From the NCBI GenBank assembly GCA_965248925.1, contig CBDFLE010000006.1:64001-128000 (forward strand): 64,000 nucleotides of DNA, written 5' to 3'. The stretch comes from Candidatus Multivoradales bacterium. Lineage in GTDB: Bacteria; Acidobacteriota; Thermoanaerobaculia; Multivoradales; J023. Shown here piece by piece: positions 10,796-20,115 of this stretch. Under the pieces are notes generated by a model that ran no database searches, was not told where the DNA came from, and saw only the letters and a list, made by a program, of their open reading frames with translations. Positions within the stretch are counted from its first letter, which is position 1, and each line of letters starts with the position of its first letter. Made by a program: the position numbers and the translations under genes.

Positions 10796-12607
<1,812 letters not shown>

Positions 12608-12633
12608 GCCATGGCAGGGTCAGGCACTGATCT

Positions 12634-13038
12634 TCAAGGAACAATTTCAAACACCTCAACCCCCTCCGGCCGGTAGACGCTAAAGCCACGCCGGTCGAGG
12701 GTGAAAACGCGCTTCAACCGGTCCCGCTCGGCTACTCTGACCAGTGCCGCATCGGCTAGGTCCATAGGTAGATCTCGGTACTTGCTCATCAATTCCCGCA
12801 TGCGGGGAAAGTCCGTCGCGTCAAGCGGCGAGAGCACGACAACACCGCGACTGAGTAAGTTCCACAGTGCTTCCTGCCCACGCCAGTCGAATCCGAGTAG
12901 ATACATGGCTTTCGTGACCGCCGGCCAGACGGTCAGCATCGGTTCTTTCAAAGACTCGAACAGTACGCGGCAGGAGTGATGCTGAGAATCGTCAGCGTGC
13001 AGCAAGGCCACTAATGGCCCCGCATCCACCAAGATCAA
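12634..13038 (-). CDS. vapC: PIN-domain VapC toxin (possibly inactivated)
   Basis: ILVDAGPLVA, PMDLADAALV, VFTLD; overlaps the upstream antitoxin stop by 4 nt. Confidence 0.9.
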   Translation of the reverse strand: MILVDAGPLVALLHADDSQHHSCRVLFESLKEPMLTVWPAVTKAMYLLGFDWRGQEALWNLLSRGVVVLSPLDATDFPRMRELMSKYRDLPMDLADAALVRVAERDRLKRVFTLDRRGFSVYRPEGVEVFEIVP

Positions 13039-13283
13039 CGTCGCCGCTCCAGTAGCTCGCGGAACTTGCGACCGGTCTCCTGAGACAGATCCGGCGGGCC
13101 GCCGCTGACGCAGCCGATAAGATCACGCGCCAATTCCGCCGGATTCGCCGTGGTCAAGGCGCGCCGTTCGGCCATCTCTTGGATCGCCAAGCGTACAACC
13201 TCGGATTTGGGCCGCTGAACTACGCGGACCAAGAGATTCAACGCTTCTTCAGTTCTTCGGTCAAGTCTTACACTGGTAGGCAT
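13035..13283 (-). CDS. vapB: Ribbon-helix-helix (CopG-like) antitoxin
   Basis: MPTSVRLD..TE..L..L......KSEVVR.AI RHH signature; C-terminal LIGCVSGGPPDLS; GGGAG RBS; coupled to PIN gene. Confidence 0.85.
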   Translation of the reverse strand: MPTSVRLDRRTEEALNLLVRVVQRPKSEVVRLAIQEMAERRALTTANPAELARDLIGCVSGGPPDLSQETGRKFRELLERRR

Positions 13284-13294
13284 TCGGGACTCCC

Positions 13295-13315
13295 TGTAGG
13301 ACAAACCGTACTACA
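13295..13315. promoter_or_regulatory. Palindromic operator upstream of vapBC
   Basis: TGTAGGAC-AAACC-GTACTACA (7/8 inverted repeat) just upstream of the antitoxin RBS, typical of TA autoregulation. Confidence 0.55.
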
Positions 13316-13352
13316 TCTCGACATCTCGATGCAATTGCCCAATCGAGCAGTA

Positions 13353-14675
13353 CTACCCTGTCACCAGATCCACTGCCAAGGCATCGAGCGCCCGCTGTAG
13401 GGGGAAGAAGAAAGAGGTCTCGCCGCTGCCGGCGAAGGCCATGGCGATGGCGTAGCCGTCGGCGGCGATCAGCAAGGCGCCACAATCGCCAGGCTCGAGC
13501 ATCGGCGTAGTCTCGATCAAGTCGCCGAAGACAATCGGCACGGTGTTGCCATCGCCGGTGCCGCGCAATGGCCCACCGACGCAGCAGACCGGTAGCGGTA
13601 GCTCGATCTGGGCATCGATCTGCAACACCTCTCCGTGGACCGCGCCGCTGGTCCGGCCGACCATCGACACGGCTTCGCCGTCGACCGCAGGGCGGACTCC
13701 GCGCGGCACCCCGAGCCCGGAAATCTTGGCGCTGACATCAGTCACTTTGCGAACCGCTGCGATCAACGCAATCAGGTTGCTGGCAGCTCTGGCCGGCTGA
13801 TCGTGAGCGACGATGAAACGGCTGACTTTGGCCACGATATCGGCACGGGTGCCGCCATCAGGCCGGGCGGGCTGGATGACCGCGTCACCGGGGTTGGGAA
13901 GGGTGCCGCCGGCACAGAATGGGGTCAGGTCGGAGAGGATGGCGAGGGCCTTCGGATTACCCCGGTCGGTCACCAATGCGCCGAAGGTGGTGGCGCCGCC
14001 GCGGTAGTGGCCCAAGCTAGCGCCAGGCGACGCGGGCCGCACCCGTACCTGGAAAGGTGAGGCGGGCTGCGTCGCGGCAGGCGGTGAATCCGAGACCGGG
14101 TCAAGCAGAGCGGTAGAAACCGCCGCTGCCGGCACTCCCTCCGCAAGCTCGATCAACTTGGCATAGCCACTCTCGCGCAGCTCCAGCGGGCTGAGCACGA
14201 TCATGTCGCGCAAGATGTCGACTATCCGCGCAATCATGTCGCGGATGTCATCGTAGAGATTGAGGTCCTCGCCGATGCCCTGCAAGTTGGCCAGGCCGAC
14301 CGAGCGCATTTTGACTTCGAGTTCTTTCTTCTTGTCTTCCCAATGCTTGATGTAGTCGAGCAGGTCAATCGCGTCGTAGATTCGCGCATCACTCAACACT
14401 AATAGGAAAATTCGCTGCTTGAAGTCACCGTGCGCGAATACTTGCAGCAATTCGGACATGCAGAATCTTGAACGCAGGTACTTGTCCGAGATCAGCAGCA
14501 CTACCGCTCGGCCGTGGCCAATCTTTGCCATGAACTCGCGGATGCTGTCTTTCGCTCCCAACTCCCTCTTGTCTCGTCGCAACCGGATATGGTGCGCCGC
14601 CAGGGCCTGCTCGATCTCATCGGCGACTTGCTCACTCTCGCCACCCCAGGCGTAGGACAGATAAATCTCACTCAT
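13353..14675 (-). CDS. TIR domain fused to a chymotrypsin-like (Nal1/S1-type) domain with degenerate triad
   Basis: N-term IYLSYAW..RDK..SI.EFM..IG....VVLLISDKYLRS.FCM.E; C-term RP..PG.SLGH, GD.VIQP...DGG, GRTSG, GDCG, FAGS. Confidence 0.85.
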   Translation of the reverse strand: MSEIYLSYAWGGESEQVADEIEQALAAHHIRLRRDKRELGAKDSIREFMAKIGHGRAVVLLISDKYLRSRFCMSELLQVFAHGDFKQRIFLLVLSDARIYDAIDLLDYIKHWEDKKKELEVKMRSVGLANLQGIGEDLNLYDDIRDMIARIVDILRDMIVLSPLELRESGYAKLIELAEGVPAAAVSTALLDPVSDSPPAATQPASPFQVRVRPASPGASLGHYRGGATTFGALVTDRGNPKALAILSDLTPFCAGGTLPNPGDAVIQPARPDGGTRADIVAKVSRFIVAHDQPARAASNLIALIAAVRKVTDVSAKISGLGVPRGVRPAVDGEAVSMVGRTSGAVHGEVLQIDAQIELPLPVCCVGGPLRGTGDGNTVPIVFGDLIETTPMLEPGDCGALLIAADGYAIAMAFAGSGETSFFFPLQRALDALAVDLVTG

Positions 14676-14755
14676 GCTTGAACCTCAGGTTAAGAGCATG
14701 AATTGTAACCGTTCCCCTAACCCGGCCGCTGGGAAAGAGCTAGGCTTGCCGAATC

Positions 14756-15931
14756 ATGGATGCCGAACTACTCGCAAGCGCCGAGCCCAAAACCGGCGCC
14801 GGGCTTTACCTGCACATTCCCTTCTGCTCCGCGATTTGCCCTTACTGCGATTTCGCGGTGCTGGTGGGAAACGAGCGTCGGCTGGCGGCGTTCGGCTCCT
14901 TGCTGGAGCAAGAAATTGGCCGCTGGAAGGCGACGAGTTGGAGTTTCGACACCGTCTACCTGGGTGGGGGTACGCCGTCGATCTTGCCCGCTGACACCCT
15001 CGCCGAGGTGTTTGCTCAGCTCGCCGACAACCTCACCCTCGAGGCGGATTGCCGATTCTACTTGGAAGCCAACCCGGAAGATGTCGACCGCCCACGGCTC
15101 GAGGCCTGGCAACGACTAGGAATCAGCACCTTGAGCCTCGGAGTGCAGGCTTTCGACGATCGGAATTTGGCCTTCCTCGGCCGCCGCCATGACCCTGCAC
15201 AAGCTCGGAGAGCGGTGCGCCTGGCTCTGGGATCCGACTTTGAAACCGTCTCACTGGATCTGATCTTCGGCCTACCTGGGCAAGATCTGGAGTCGTGGCG
15301 CCGGACTCTGCAAACCGCGATCGACCTCGGCCCACAGCATCTTTCTTGCTACCAGCTCGAGATCCACCAGCGCACCCCGTTTGGCCGCTTGCAACGCCGA
15401 GGTGAGCTGCGCGAAGCTCCCGAACCACGCCAGGCCGAACTTTTTCGGTTCACTCACCAACGCCTTGCCGACGCCGGCTGGCAAGGCTACGAGGTGTCGA
15501 ATTTCGCCCGCGCCCCGAAGCATCGCTCGCACCACAACAGCAAGTATTGGGACCACACCCCGTACCTCGGCCTGGGACCCTCGGCCCACTCCTTCGCTGG
15601 CCGGCGGCGTTGGTGGAATGTACGCCATATGGAAGCCTGGGCACGACAATTGCGCGACACCGGCGACCCCTTGGAGGGCTGCGAAAATCTGCGCAACGAG
15701 CAACTTGCGTTGGAGCGCCTGATGCTCGGCCTGCGCACCAGCGACGGCATCGACCTGCGACGCTTCCAACGGCGCTACGGCATCGACTTGGTGAGAACCA
15801 ACCAGCGACGCATCGACACTCTGCGCCGCGATGGCTTGCTCGCCGAAGACGCCGATTTCCTGCGCCCCACCCTCGATGGCCTAGCGGTGGCTGACGGCCT
15901 AGCGGTGAATTTTGAAGTCCGCGCCGACTAG
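14756..15931 (+). CDS. hemW: Radical SAM heme chaperone
   Basis: LYLHIPFC..ICPYCDF, YLGGGTPS, EANP, YEVSNFA, HNSKYW, YLGLGPSAHS. Confidence 0.93.
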   Translation: MDAELLASAEPKTGAGLYLHIPFCSAICPYCDFAVLVGNERRLAAFGSLLEQEIGRWKATSWSFDTVYLGGGTPSILPADTLAEVFAQLADNLTLEADCRFYLEANPEDVDRPRLEAWQRLGISTLSLGVQAFDDRNLAFLGRRHDPAQARRAVRLALGSDFETVSLDLIFGLPGQDLESWRRTLQTAIDLGPQHLSCYQLEIHQRTPFGRLQRRGELREAPEPRQAELFRFTHQRLADAGWQGYEVSNFARAPKHRSHHNSKYWDHTPYLGLGPSAHSFAGRRRWWNVRHMEAWARQLRDTGDPLEGCENLRNEQLALERLMLGLRTSDGIDLRRFQRRYGIDLVRTNQRRIDTLRRDGLLAEDADFLRPTLDGLAVADGLAVNFEVRAD

Positions 15932-16043: not shown

Positions 16044-17390
16044 CTAGTTTGCGCTGGGAATCACGCCAGTGTCGGTGATCAGCGGGTTGACATCGTCGCA
16101 AGCCGAGGTCAGCGGTAAGGCCGAGTAGCCGACCTGGAACAGGCCCAAGGCGCTGATCGTGGTCGTTACATGGCTCTGCGAGATGTTGCCATCTGAGCCG
16201 AAGTCAACATCGAAAGCGACCCCGTCGTTCGGAATGTTCAGGTTGAGGAACGTCCAACCGGACTCGTAAGGAATCGCCAGATCGCCGTCGCCGATCTTCG
16301 AGCGCTGGGTCTCAAGCGGGAAACAAGCCGGATCGAAGTCCGGATCCGGCGGCGAGATCACGCCACCACCGAAGATGAAGCATATCTCGACCGCGTTCTC
16401 TTGCTCGTCGAACGCTACGACCTCGGTCTCGTTCATTGGGTTCTACGACGGACCCGCACCAGGGCCAGAGCCGCAATTGTAGAACTGCTGAGTGTCAGAG
16501 GTGGTCGAGTCACGCCACACCAAGAGGTCTGTGCCACCGGTGAAACCAGCGTTCTCGATGTAACGAGTCGCCCAGGTGGTAGCCAACGGCTCGCGATTGT
16601 CCGAGCCGGTCAGGCCTGGATCGTAGCGACCGTAGAAGGTGTAACCCGTCGGCGTCGAGCCGGCGTTGAACTGCGGATCGGCCTCGATGGCCACCAGCGG
16701 CTCGCCAAACGAGAAGGCGTTCACCTGATCGACGATGTAGAAGTCGCCCCACAGCTGGTTGATGTCGTTGGCGATACCCACGCCACCGTCCACGAAGTAG
16801 CCGGTCTCGTTCGGGAACACCGTCGAACACTGGTTGACGTTATCGATCGTGATGTAACCGCGAGCGATGGCATCACCGTGATCCTCGCCCATGCAGCCCA
16901 GACCCAGCACGTTCTGGCCAGTGTGGCCATTCTGCAAGCGGGTCAGGTTGGCCGAGGAAACCACCGGGTTGTTGAACGGGAATACGCCCAAGCAGCCAGG
17001 GAAACTACCGTCCCACTGCGGGTTCAAGCCGTGCGGGCTGATCAAGTCGGCGCCGTCATTCTGGGCATCGGCCGTGACCGGCAGGTTGCCCTGGAAGACG
17101 TCGAACAGGTTGACCGGCACGATGTCGTAACCGCTAAGGAAAACGTCGCAGTCAATCGTCGGCTGGGTCCAATCGGTCCACAGCGTGACGTGAGCCAGCG
17201 CCGGAGCGGCTGACGCGTTGTTGATGGTGAACAGCGTGGTGGTACCCACCGCGTTGGTGTAGTCGACCTCAAAGTAAGGCAGCAGTAGGGTCGCCGCCGG
17301 CACGTTGTCAATCGTGCACAGCTCGGCGAAGGCCTGTCCGCCGAAGGCAAGGACACTAGCCACTAGTAAAACTAAAACGATCTTTTTCAT
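16044..17390 (-). pseudogene. Exported/surface protein copy B with in-frame TAG
   Basis: Same length (1347 nt) as the paralog at 18561..19907; TAG at 16443-16445 aligns with Trp TGG of the paralog and the frame continues unchanged. Confidence 0.85.
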
Positions 17391-18560: not shown

Positions 18561-19907
18561 CTAGTTTGCGCTGGGAATCACTCCAGTGTCGGTGATCAAC
18601 GGGTTGACATTCTCGCAAGCCGAGGTCAGCGGCAACGCCGAGTAGCCGACCTGGAACAGGCCAAGGGCACTGATCGTGGTCGTCACATGGCTCTGAGCCA
18701 ACGAACCGTCGGAACCGAAGTCGACGTCGAAGGCGACGCCAATGTCGTCGATGTTCAAGTTCAAGAACATCCAACCCGACTCATACGGAAGGGCCAGGTT
18801 GCCGTCGCCTACCGTCGCCCGCTGGGTCTCCAGCGGGAAGCACGGCGGATCCACGTCCGGGTCCGGAGGCGAAATCACTCCGCCACCCAGGTCGAAGCAG
18901 ATCTCCACTGCGTTCTCCTGCTCGTCGAACGCCACAACCTCGGTCTCGTTCAGCGGGTTCCACGACGGGCCAGCACCAGGGCCAGAGCCACAGGCGTAGA
19001 ACTGCTGGGTGTCAGAGGTCGTCGAGTCACGCCACACCAAGAGGTCGGTACCACCGGTGAAACCAGCGTTCTCGATGTAACGAGTCGCCCAGGTGGTGGC
19101 CAACGGCTCGCGGTTATCCGAGCCGGTCAGGCCTGGATCGTAGCGACCGTAGAAGGTGTAACCGGTAGGCGTCGAGGCGGCGTTGAACTGCGGATCGGCC
19201 TCAATCGCCACCAACGGCTCACCGAAGGAGAAGGCGTTGACCTGGTCGACAATGTAGTAATCGCCCCACAGCTCGTTGATGTCGTTGGCAATGCCGACGC
19301 CGCCGTCTACGAAGTAGCCGGTCTCGTTCGGGAACACCGTCGAACACTGGTTGACGTTGTCGATCGTGATGTAACCACGAGCGATGGCGTCACTGTGATC
19401 CTCGCCCATGCAGCCCAGACCCAGCACGTCCTGGCCGGTGTGGCCATTCTGCAAACGGGTCAGGTTGGCCGAGGAAACCACCGGGTTGTTGAACGGGAAT
19501 ACGCCCAAGCAACCAGGGAAGCTACCGTCCCACTGCGGGTTCAAGCCGTGCGGGCTGATCAAGTCGGCGCCGTCGTTCTGGGCATCGGCCGTGACCGGCA
19601 GGTTGCCCTGGAAGACGTCGAACAAGTTAACCGGCACGATGTCGTAGCCAGTGAGGAAAACGTCGAAGTCGATCGTCGGCTGGGTCCAATCGGTCCACAG
19701 CGTGACGTGAGCCAGCGCCGGAGCGGCTGACGCGTTGTTGATCGTGAACAGCGTGGTGGTACCCGCCGCGTTGGTGTAGTCGACCTCGAAGTAGGGCAGC
19801 AAAAGAGTTGCGGCCGGTACATTGTCGATCGTACACAGTTCGGCGAACGCCTGCCCGCCAAGAGCGAGGAGGCTAGCCACTAGTAGGACTAGAACTATCT
19901 TTTTCAT
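18561..19907 (-). CDS. Exported/surface protein copy A (VPAATLLLPYFEVD family), 448 aa
   Basis: Signal peptide MKKIVLVLLVASLLALGGQAFA; acidic, Gly/Asn/Thr-rich, several Cys; intact ORF. Confidence 0.85.
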   Translation of the reverse strand: MKKIVLVLLVASLLALGGQAFAELCTIDNVPAATLLLPYFEVDYTNAAGTTTLFTINNASAAPALAHVTLWTDWTQPTIDFDVFLTGYDIVPVNLFDVFQGNLPVTADAQNDGADLISPHGLNPQWDGSFPGCLGVFPFNNPVVSSANLTRLQNGHTGQDVLGLGCMGEDHSDAIARGYITIDNVNQCSTVFPNETGYFVDGGVGIANDINELWGDYYIVDQVNAFSFGEPLVAIEADPQFNAASTPTGYTFYGRYDPGLTGSDNREPLATTWATRYIENAGFTGGTDLLVWRDSTTSDTQQFYACGSGPGAGPSWNPLNETEVVAFDEQENAVEICFDLGGGVISPPDPDVDPPCFPLETQRATVGDGNLALPYESGWMFLNLNIDDIGVAFDVDFGSDGSLAQSHVTTTISALGLFQVGYSALPLTSACENVNPLITDTGVIPSAN

Positions 19908-20115
19908 ACCTGCTTGATCTCCCCAGGTTGAAAAGGGGTCTCTGATGTCGAATCTAGAGCCACGGGCCACGGGCGCGGGCTCCGGTCTGTGGAGCGCTTC
20001 GGCTCCCGTCCTGTATCTCGGTACGGGCACTCACCTCCTGTCTAAAGACTTCTACCGAGACTAGCACGAATGTGGAGGAAATTTGCAACCCACTTGTAGC
20101 CAACCCCCCATCAGC

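Follow-up and report, generated by a model that had tools for sequence, protein, structure and literature searches.

This report concerns one gene in a 64,000-nucleotide stretch of DNA from Candidatus Multivoradales bacterium (GenBank assembly GCA_965248925.1, contig CBDFLE010000006.1, positions 64,001 to 128,000). The gene encodes a 440-amino-acid protein in which a TIR module is joined to a domain of the Nal1-like chymotrypsin fold, and this second domain, which lacks all three residues of the catalytic triad, is very probably a maintained non-catalytic pseudoprotease. The whole stretch, hereafter called the window, corresponds to C6:64001-128000 of a 7.98-Mb genome in six contigs. The protein is designated P0001, and its triad-less Nal1-like S1 domain is designated psS1. 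Judged from sequence comparisons, P0001 is likely to have a conflict or immune function. The mechanism as a whole, in which the TIR module would act as an NADase effector and the pseudoprotease as a peptide- or protein-binding sensor or regulator, is in our judgment evenly poised between right and wrong. TIR NADases are immune executioners common to bacteria, plants and animals, and it is the way in which they are switched on that varies.

The reading frame of P0001 is unbroken, and GAGG lies 8-11 nucleotides ahead of its ATG. From the N-terminus, the protein consists of a TIR domain, a helical extension, a Pro/Ala-rich linker and psS1 (Table 1). These domain calls (a TIR that keeps the catalytic Glu, its helical tail and a chymotrypsin fold of the Nal1-like kind) had been made in the original prediction, which was based on the sequence of the stretch, and they are borne out by Pfam, phmmer, AlphaFold2 and Foldseek. 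The motifs FCMSE (Glu75), RPASPGASLGH, GDAVIQPARPDGG, GRTSG, FAGS, ILSDLTP, LIALIA and PGDCG (Cys398) were all confirmed in the frame. An NCBIfam scan of P0001 returned nothing meaningful, and in PADLOC residues 3-167 matched, weakly (E 2.8e-5), the TIR portion of a TIR-SAVED model. The G+C content is divided within the gene, being 0.53-0.55 in the TIR half (~14100-14700) and 0.66-0.68 in the psS1 half (~13500-14100), with ~0.62 for the window; this may be a matter of amino-acid composition, or the halves may differ in origin.

The C-terminal half of P0001 has no Pfam match, and its assignment comes from the predicted structure and from homology. When the full protein was modeled by AlphaFold2 from an 85-row alignment, residues 205-440 received predicted local distance difference test (pLDDT) values of 93-99. 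When this domain was compared with the PDB by Foldseek, rice NAL1 ranked first (7y77, 8pmg; E 3e-12), and the next matches were Streptomyces griseus protease B (SGPB) and alpha-lytic protease, with template modeling (TM) scores to the target of 0.75-0.82. In the comparison with PDB sequences there was a weak match (2sfa, E 0.048) between residues 380-437 and S1 proteases of Streptomyces. An exhaustive phmmer search with residues 200-440, covering 1.84 billion cluster representatives, retrieved 1821 proteins at E<=1e-3, of which 370 reached E<=1e-10 and 16 reached E<=1e-30. Lower-ranked family members that have kept the triad are matched by Pfam Nal1_C (PF25819), NAL1_N (PF25608) and Trypsin_2 (PF13365), and an ESM Atlas feature search gave, as a lead, clusters annotated with Nal1_C and Trypsin_2. 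Thus, psS1 shares the S1 fold and homology of the Nal1-like serine proteases, and it lacks their His-Asp-Ser triad.

The extent of the triad loss was assessed in an alignment of 156 family domains, made up of 161 sequences minus five that covered fewer than 190 query residues, of which at least three (P0028, P0030, P0046) are fragments reading GDCG. At the triad columns, 115 of the 156 domains read His/Asp/Ser, and P0001 reads Thr251/Ile302/Cys398, so that the loss of all three residues noted in the original prediction holds against the intact members. P0001 falls in a clade of 20 cluster representatives with a support of 98 (FastTree, 156 domains), and His and Asp are both absent from every one of the 20. 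The same 20 were recovered as one side of a branch in an IQ-TREE quick search, with a Shimodaira-Hasegawa-like approximate likelihood-ratio test (SH-aLRT) value of 99; the 76 rows of this search were the 20, the 21 other rows without His-Asp-Ser, and 35 of the 115 intact rows picked at random. The clade was first taken from the FastTree tree and then re-tested, and the triad columns (3 of ~230) were kept. Within the clade, identity to P0001 drops to ~32-36%. On this tree and alignment, the triad loss is old and clade-wide, and catalysis was lost once, at the base of the clade. Two proteins near the base of the triad-less clade, P0031 and P0041, read His-Asp-Thr at the triad columns, and P0031 carries SIR2_2 N-terminal of the protease domain.

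The residues that replace the triad are varied. Position 251, that of His in all 115 intact members by definition, is Ser in 12, Thr in five, and Asn, Tyr and Leu in one each of the 20; position 302, that of Asp, is Ser in 13, Ala in two, Pro in two, and Ile, Leu and Trp in one each; and position 398, that of the nucleophilic Ser, is Ser in 12, Cys in six and Gly in two. The clade is also marked by a loop insertion near residues 366-372 and by an acidic residue at position 249 (Asp in 18, Glu in two), where 99 of the 115 triad-intact domains have Asn. The scaffold has been kept: the RP, QP, DGG and GR..G motifs are retained, G396, D397 and G399 are invariant in the clade, and F414 and A415 reach a conservation of 85-90%, as they do in the active enzymes. 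The closest relative, P0002 (548 amino acids, 66% identity overall), reads GDCG and has an extra TPR-like tail, and it is 70% identical to P0001 over psS1 and 65% over the TIR module. P0163 (409 amino acids, TIR-psS1), which is 61% identical over psS1, reads GDSG.

Two other accounts of the changed triad were considered and rejected. Recent decay is ruled out because the whole clade is without His and Asp and because both halves of P0001 are 65-70% identical to those of P0002; the original prediction had likewise argued against decay, and the finding that it named as a refutation, an intact triad in close homologues, is absent from all 20 clade members. The PGDCG motif resembles the nucleophile motif of 3C-like proteases, and a Cys protease with a relocated His had been suggested as the less likely alternative. 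This suggestion is not supported, because Cys398 is one of three tolerated residues and His223, which alone among the His residues is common in the clade (16 of 20), is just as frequent in the triad-intact members (102 of 115). A conservation count over the 20 members gave no clade-specific conserved His; the canonical position holds no His, and neither His290 nor His346 of P0001 is conserved even in P0002 or P0163. Of the checks proposed with the original prediction, the triad loss proved to be common to the clade and Glu75 invariant in the aligned TIR modules, and conservation gave no partner His for Cys398.

The TIR module of P0001 looks competent, as a putative NADase, on its sequence. TIR_2 (PF13676) was matched with 44.1 bits against a cut-off of 28, and the model of residues 1-200 has the flavodoxin-like TIR fold, with a modest match. 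The best PDB sequence matches are the TIR domains of plant NLRs (RUN1, E 3e-4, phmmer), and Cat1 is a weak one (E 0.22). In the phmmer alignments, Glu75 stands under Glu100 of RUN1, and under Ala in 7s2z, an entry titled as the E100A mutant; it thus occupies the place of the catalytic Glu of enzymatic (NADase) TIRs, in the alphaC-region motif. Glu75 is invariant in 12 of 12 aligned TIR modules, together with SYAWGGESE, RDK and ISDKYL..S..CM.EL.

The TIR domain and the helical extension form a module that, on sequence comparison, appears to be portable across C-terminal domains. Residues 1-180 are 42-55% identical to the N-terminal modules of P0003-P0013; in P0003 the module and a Pro/Ala-rich linker are followed by an AAA_22/AAA_35 ATPase, and in P0004-P0012, likewise after a Pro/Ala-rich linker, by a domain of ~170 amino acids without assignment. 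In L020 the order is reversed, with the module C-terminal of an AAA_35-type ATPase. On plasmids of Chondrinema litorale the module heads a 572-amino-acid TIR protein. It also heads a 604-amino-acid protein of the SUMF1/EgtB/PvdO (FGE-sulfatase) family on the C. litorale plasmid NZ_CP111044.1 (locus L035, 74802-76616), where it is 39% identical over residues 2-179 and the neighbors are parA/parB-like and BRO genes of the plasmid.

The partners of psS1 were catalogued from Pfam scans and precomputed annotations for the 20 representatives of 50%-identity clusters and for four loci. Partner domains are present in 18 of the 20 clade members, with TIR in nine, CHAT in seven, SIR2_2 in three and EAD7 in five, and this makes the immune context put forward in the original prediction plausible. 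The TIR-psS1 arrangement is found in P0001, P0002, P0163, P0015 and P0020; CHAT-psS1-TIR in P0016, P0018 and P0164; psS1-TIR-SIR2_2 in P0019; CHAT-psS1 in P0024, P0026 and P0166; CHAT-psS1-SIR2_2 in P0029; EAD7-psS1 in P0021, P0023, P0027 and P0165; and EAD7-psS1-SIR2_2 in P0022. No partner domain was detected in P0025 and in P0017, which is a fragment. Full-length relatives of P0001 are very rare, with one among 5.8 billion clustered proteins at the sensitivity of the search made and one more, P0163, from the search with the psS1 region. TIR-psS1 is a rare but old pairing.

A scan of genome contigs with the single psS1 sequence gave no relative, and a scan with an alignment as the query gave seven loci. 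A Thermoanaerobaculia metagenome-assembled genome (MAG) holds a stand-alone TIR-psS1 gene beside those for a MacB-type permease and a Ser/Thr kinase-TPR protein (L001). At L003, an EAD7-psS1 gene is divergent from that of a 1188-amino-acid Trypsin_2+vWA protein. In two Anaerolineae-type MAGs, a class-V aminotransferase gene lies directly before a CHAT-psS1 gene (L002, 43-4267; L004, 7482-10723); the protein of L002, an Anaerolineae MAG, ends in a TIR (CHAT-psS1-TIR), and the CHAT-psS1 gene of L004 is followed by one for a second CHAT protein.

Nal1-like domains of a second group, placed apart in the tree, have also lost the triad (support 100 for six rows, FastTree). This group was seen in P0058, P0107, P0114, P0120, P0138, P0144 and P0151. 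In P0058, P0114, P0120 and P0151 an nSTAND1 NTPase precedes the triad-less domain and WD40 repeats or an FGE-sulfatase domain follow it; nSTAND1 alone is present in P0144, and WD40 alone in P0107 and P0138.

In the reading preferred here, the gene product would be a cytoplasmic, single-polypeptide conflict or defense protein. Its effector would be the TIR module (residues 1-180), acting through Glu75, and its ligand-binding input would be psS1, a Nal1-like chymotrypsin fold that lost His and Asp long ago and retains GDxG and FAG(S), which we take as the scaffold of the oxyanion hole and of the substrate strand. Peptides or proteins from an invader or a stressed cell would be captured by psS1, and this would either lift an autoinhibition or seed the assembly of the TIR domains, which, once brought together, would cleave NAD+ and arrest the infected cell. 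NADase activity, ligand binding by psS1, activation by clustering and a role in phage defense are all parts that we infer. The main argument for psS1 as the input domain is its position, since within the same TIR-module family it occupies the place taken by an FGE-sulfatase-family region, and FGS (FGE-sulfatase-type) domains are among the invader-sensing domains of conflict systems in the available text of PMC8195603. To the extent of that text, psS1 appears to be positionally equivalent to a known sensor domain. When full-length P0001 was sent as two copies for prediction of a homo-oligomer, the score was 0.00, in a run without controls, which bears on self-association in neither direction.

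The gene lies in a 2,148-nucleotide insert between lepA and a hemW-like radical-SAM gene, which it shares with a vapBC-like pair (Table 1). The vapB-like gene is 50 nucleotides downstream of the TIR-psS1 gene on the same strand, and its start is more likely the ATG at 13283; the TTG start of the vapC-like gene overlaps the vapB stop (TTGA). In five of nine relatives' loci lepA abuts hemW, and in the other four lepA is absent within ~6 kb; none of the vapC, vapB and TIR-psS1 genes was found in these nine. A search for direct or inverted repeats flanking the insert gave only short, imperfect matches, which were judged chance-like and rejected as marks of a mobile element. Between 12400 and 15000 there were no sigma-70 sites, and the four terminator-like sites there are within the range of shuffles. 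A search for sequencing runs that contain the stretch gave four DNA runs of one study and no RNA run, which has no bearing on expression. In none of 40 related genomes from the same family or order did a match span both halves of P0001, and the best partial matches were to psS1 only (46%, G012) and to the TIR module only (50%, G020).

Elsewhere in the genome, psS1 is present in one copy, and TIR_2 was matched 13 times, 11 of them over the Pfam cut-off and several in open frames of more than 1000 amino acids, which points to a large set of TIR proteins encoded by this 8-Mb genome. The only other match to psS1 in the genome is weak (E 8.2e-5) and lies ~13 kb before the start of the window (G000:C6:50912-51160), within a 668-amino-acid open frame, with 33% identity over query residues 13-97. 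Beyond the insert, two paralogous open reading frames on the minus strand, at 16044-17390 and 18561-20030, begin with hydrophobic N-termini that are nearly identical (MKKIVLVLLVAS...), and Pfam matched neither of them; the one at 18561-20030 encodes 489 amino acids, and the other is seemingly split into 315 + 130 amino acids near 16440.

Table 1. Features of the TIR-psS1 gene and of the insert that holds it (positions in the window).
Feature	Position	Strand	Basis or remark
Whole open reading frame (440 amino acids + stop), from the TIR through the helical extension and Pro/Ala linker to psS1, the Nal1-like S1 domain without triad	13353..14675	-	
TIR_2 Pfam match, residues 4-112	14340..14666	-	E 3.6e-11; fold matches are plant TIRs RUN1, Roq1, L6
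Glu75 codon, putative catalytic Glu of the TIR	14451..14453	-	aligned with RUN1 Glu; invariant in 12/12 TIR-module relatives
Helices extending the TIR module, residues 102-180 (those at 102-125 and 128-157 are long)	14136..14372	-	AlphaFold2 models; conserved in P0002-P0013, whose C-terminal domains differ
Pro/Ala-rich linker, residues 181-205	14061..14135	-	pLDDT <50 over 181-200; sequence
psS1, Nal1-like chymotrypsin-fold domain without triad, residues 206-440	13356..14060	-	homology, alignment, model, Foldseek
Thr251 at the catalytic His position	13923..13925	-	family alignment
Ile302 at the catalytic Asp position	13770..13772	-	family alignment
Cys398 at the nucleophile Ser position (GDCG)	13482..13484	-	family alignment
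vapB-like, ribbon-helix-helix antitoxin-like gene	13035..13304	-	RHH_1 E 0.0046, below Pfam cut-off
vapC-like, PIN-domain toxin-like gene	12634..13038	-	PIN E 3.4e-7
Insert of 2,148 nucleotides flanked by lepA (end at 12607) and the hemW-like radical-SAM gene (start at 14756)	12608..14755	.	holds vapC, vapB, TIR-psS1

Several observations weigh against the reading of P0001 as a defense protein with psS1 as its primary sensor. In many clade members psS1 lies between a CHAT protease and an NADase, and in the second group its counterpart lies between the nSTAND1 NTPase and WD40 or FGE-sulfatase domains, arrangements that suit an adaptor or regulatory hinge no less than a primary sensor. The TIR module was modeled with moderate confidence (pLDDT 58-87 in the full-length model, mean 73.7 for residues 1-200 alone), and the top Foldseek matches of residues 1-200, the TIRs of RUN1, Roq1 and L6, are modest (best E 2e-4, TM 0.43-0.52). 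PADLOC gave no full-system match for P0001. The gene is flanked by lepA, hemW and genes for a Leu/Phe-tRNA protein transferase and a PMT_2 glycosyltransferase, and the other neighbors of the insert are either housekeeping genes or without a match in Pfam. The locus is a small accessory insert, not a recognizable defense island, and the link to such an island that the original prediction proposed to check is not upheld, the vapBC pair being all that accompanies the gene among housekeeping functions. The first of these points bear on the possibility that psS1 is an adaptor or regulatory element working with an active protease, to which it would dock, by which it would be cleaved, or toward which it would be dominant-negative, with proteolysis or docking switching the TIR on. 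The seven clade members fused to the caspase-like CHAT domain, usually as CHAT-psS1-(TIR/SIR2), the nSTAND1-psS1-WD40 proteins, and the loci in which EAD7-psS1 adjoins a Trypsin_2+vWA protein or CHAT-psS1 a second CHAT protein are all consistent with such a role, and the dominant-negative option is named in the available text of Kaur et al. 2020 (PMC7159879). P0001, however, has no CHAT or EAD domain, no protease gene was found in the 2.15-kb insert or the flanking genes scanned, and the TIR-psS1 homologue of L001 likewise stands alone beside its permease and kinase. We regard an adaptor role in P0001, the leading alternative, as unlikely.

It is quite unlikely that the TIR is a signal generator like ThsB of Thoeris, in which case psS1 would sense and a cyclic ADP-ribose (cADPR)-type messenger would feed an effector encoded elsewhere in the genome. 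The apparent competence of the TIR and the many TIR_2 matches, which make distant partners conceivable, speak for such a division of labor, as does the fact that the TIR is matched best, in sequence and in fold, by those of plant NLRs. Plant NLR TIRs are signal-producing enzymes. However, no SIR2, SLOG or Macro effector gene is present in the insert or its flanks, PADLOC found no Thoeris match, and P0019 fuses psS1 to TIR and SIR2_2 in one chain, which looks like a pair of NAD+ effectors rather than a sender and a receiver. A non-immune role, as a regulator of stress or NAD metabolism, as an addiction-type module with vapBC, or as a non-functional remnant, agrees with the housekeeping flanks, with the toxin-antitoxin pair as the sole neighbor in the insert and with the rarity of the family, and it is set against the intact frame, the conservation of both halves relative to P0002 and the patchy distribution, which is that of an accessory gene. 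In addition, the TIR, CHAT, SIR2 and EAD7 partners of 18 of the 20 clade members are tied to conflict systems in the accessible parts of PMC7159879 and PMC8195603, and we hold a non-immune role to be very unlikely. Least of all do we expect psS1 to be a non-canonical peptidase with Cys398 (or Ser) as the nucleophile and a relocated base. The invariant GDxG and the clade-specific acidic residue 249 would suit such an enzyme, but Gly398 in two members cannot be nucleophilic, the close relative P0163 has Ser, positions 251 and 302 vary, and the His residues offer no new base; this makes it highly improbable. The preferred reading therefore remains the TIR effector with a pseudoprotease as its sensor or regulator.

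A further step would be to see psS1 as a portable immune sensor, a 'dead protease trap' plugged onto TIR, SIR2 and CHAT caspase modules, of which P0001 would be the minimal one-gene form. The ligand of such a trap would enter through the retained substrate-binding cleft and might be, for example, the terminus of a phage protein, a protease inhibitor or the substrate of a maturation protease. We offer this extension tentatively, as a possibility well short of an even chance; were it true, it would be a sensor class new to experimental prokaryotic immunity. Were the domain instead a regulatory hinge for protease cascades, its CHAT-psS1-TIR relatives would be a simple model of the proteolytic control of an NADase. 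What is at hand is a small, old clade of protease-fold domains that occur almost only beside TIR, SIR2, CHAT or EAD7 modules, and, in P0001 (440 amino acids, one gene), a compact candidate for a pseudoprotease serving as an immune receptor in bacteria, which bears on a prediction of comparative genomics made in 2020.

According to the parts of that work available (Kaur, Burroughs, Iyer and Aravind 2020, PMC7159879), trypsin domains that occupy the effector slot of conflict systems are nearly all catalytically inactive, and roles as dominant-negative regulators or in peptide binding were proposed for them; as far as the available text goes, the principle of inactive trypsin domains is already in print as a computational prediction, and the original prediction, in which the architecture was not recognized as a named system, overstated its novelty. 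Trypsin, TIR and caspase are also given among the domains linked to effector-associated domains (EADs) in the available portion of Kaur et al. 2021 (PMC8195603). Among the papers listed by a literature search on TIR NADases, inactive trypsin-like domains and anti-phage defense, none describes a TIR-pseudotrypsin protein by title and abstract; searches on a pseudoprotease with a TIR domain and phage gave nothing, and those on a bacterial Nal1 serine protease with TIR gave nothing relevant. In the literature searched, part of it available as partial text, we did not find an affiliation with Nal1-like proteins, a dedicated clade that lost the triad once at its base, a TIR-psS1 protein standing alone or an experiment on such a protein.

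Among known systems, P0001 resembles in its logic the EAD-coupled and MoxR-vWA ternary conflict systems. A triad-less trypsin-fold domain in proteins with TIR, caspase/CHAT, SIR2 or EAD domains is common to both, to judge from the accessible text of PMC7159879, and the EAD feature is seen in relatives of P0001 (EAD7 in P0021, P0022, P0023, P0027, P0165 and L003, the last of these beside its vWA+Trypsin_2 neighbor). In contrast, P0001 has the inactive trypsin fold without an EAD, and no MoxR, vWA or NTPase core is encoded nearby; in the text available, the trypsin domains described are fused to vWA components, and neither the stand-alone TIR-psS1 form nor the Nal1-like affiliation appears there. 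Rice NAL1 and the bacterial Nal1-like S1 peptidases give the best fold match, together with sequence homology and the motifs RP..G.S, QP..DGG, GR..G, GDxG and FAG. The original prediction had borrowed oligomerization from these proteins, but the trimer and hexamer assembly of NAL1 needs its ATP-binding domain and N-terminal strand (PMC12012508, in the portion available), and a NAL1-style cage was rejected for P0001, in which Pfam detected no NAL1_N or ATP-binding domain. P0001 is thus not a NAL1 proper; psS1 differs further in the missing triad, the clade-specific loop at 366-372 and the change of Asn249 to Asp.

The mechanisms of TIR effectors with fused sensors, such as TIR-SAVED of CBASS, TIR-STING and CARF-TIR Cat1, are part of the background against which P0001 can be placed. 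Like them, it joins a TIR with a catalytic Glu to a putative ligand-binding domain in one chain. Unlike them, it has no SAVED, STING or CARF domain and no adjacent cyclase (CD-NTase) or CRISPR locus, and since its input domain has a protease fold, the expected ligand would be a peptide or protein, not a nucleotide. With Thoeris it shares a TIR protein in which the catalytic Glu is present and the variable remainder outside the TIR could be the sensor of infection, whereas the TIR gene of Thoeris lies by ThsA, with SIR2/SLOG or Macro domains, and the neighbors here are vapB, vapC, lepA and hemW. Eukaryotic S1 pseudoproteases, e.g., haptoglobin and HGF, serve as binding modules. They belong to an unrelated lineage and context, are extracellular, and none is fused to an NADase; what they would have in common with psS1 is a chymotrypsin fold kept as a binding scaffold after the loss of the triad and reused for the recognition of proteins.

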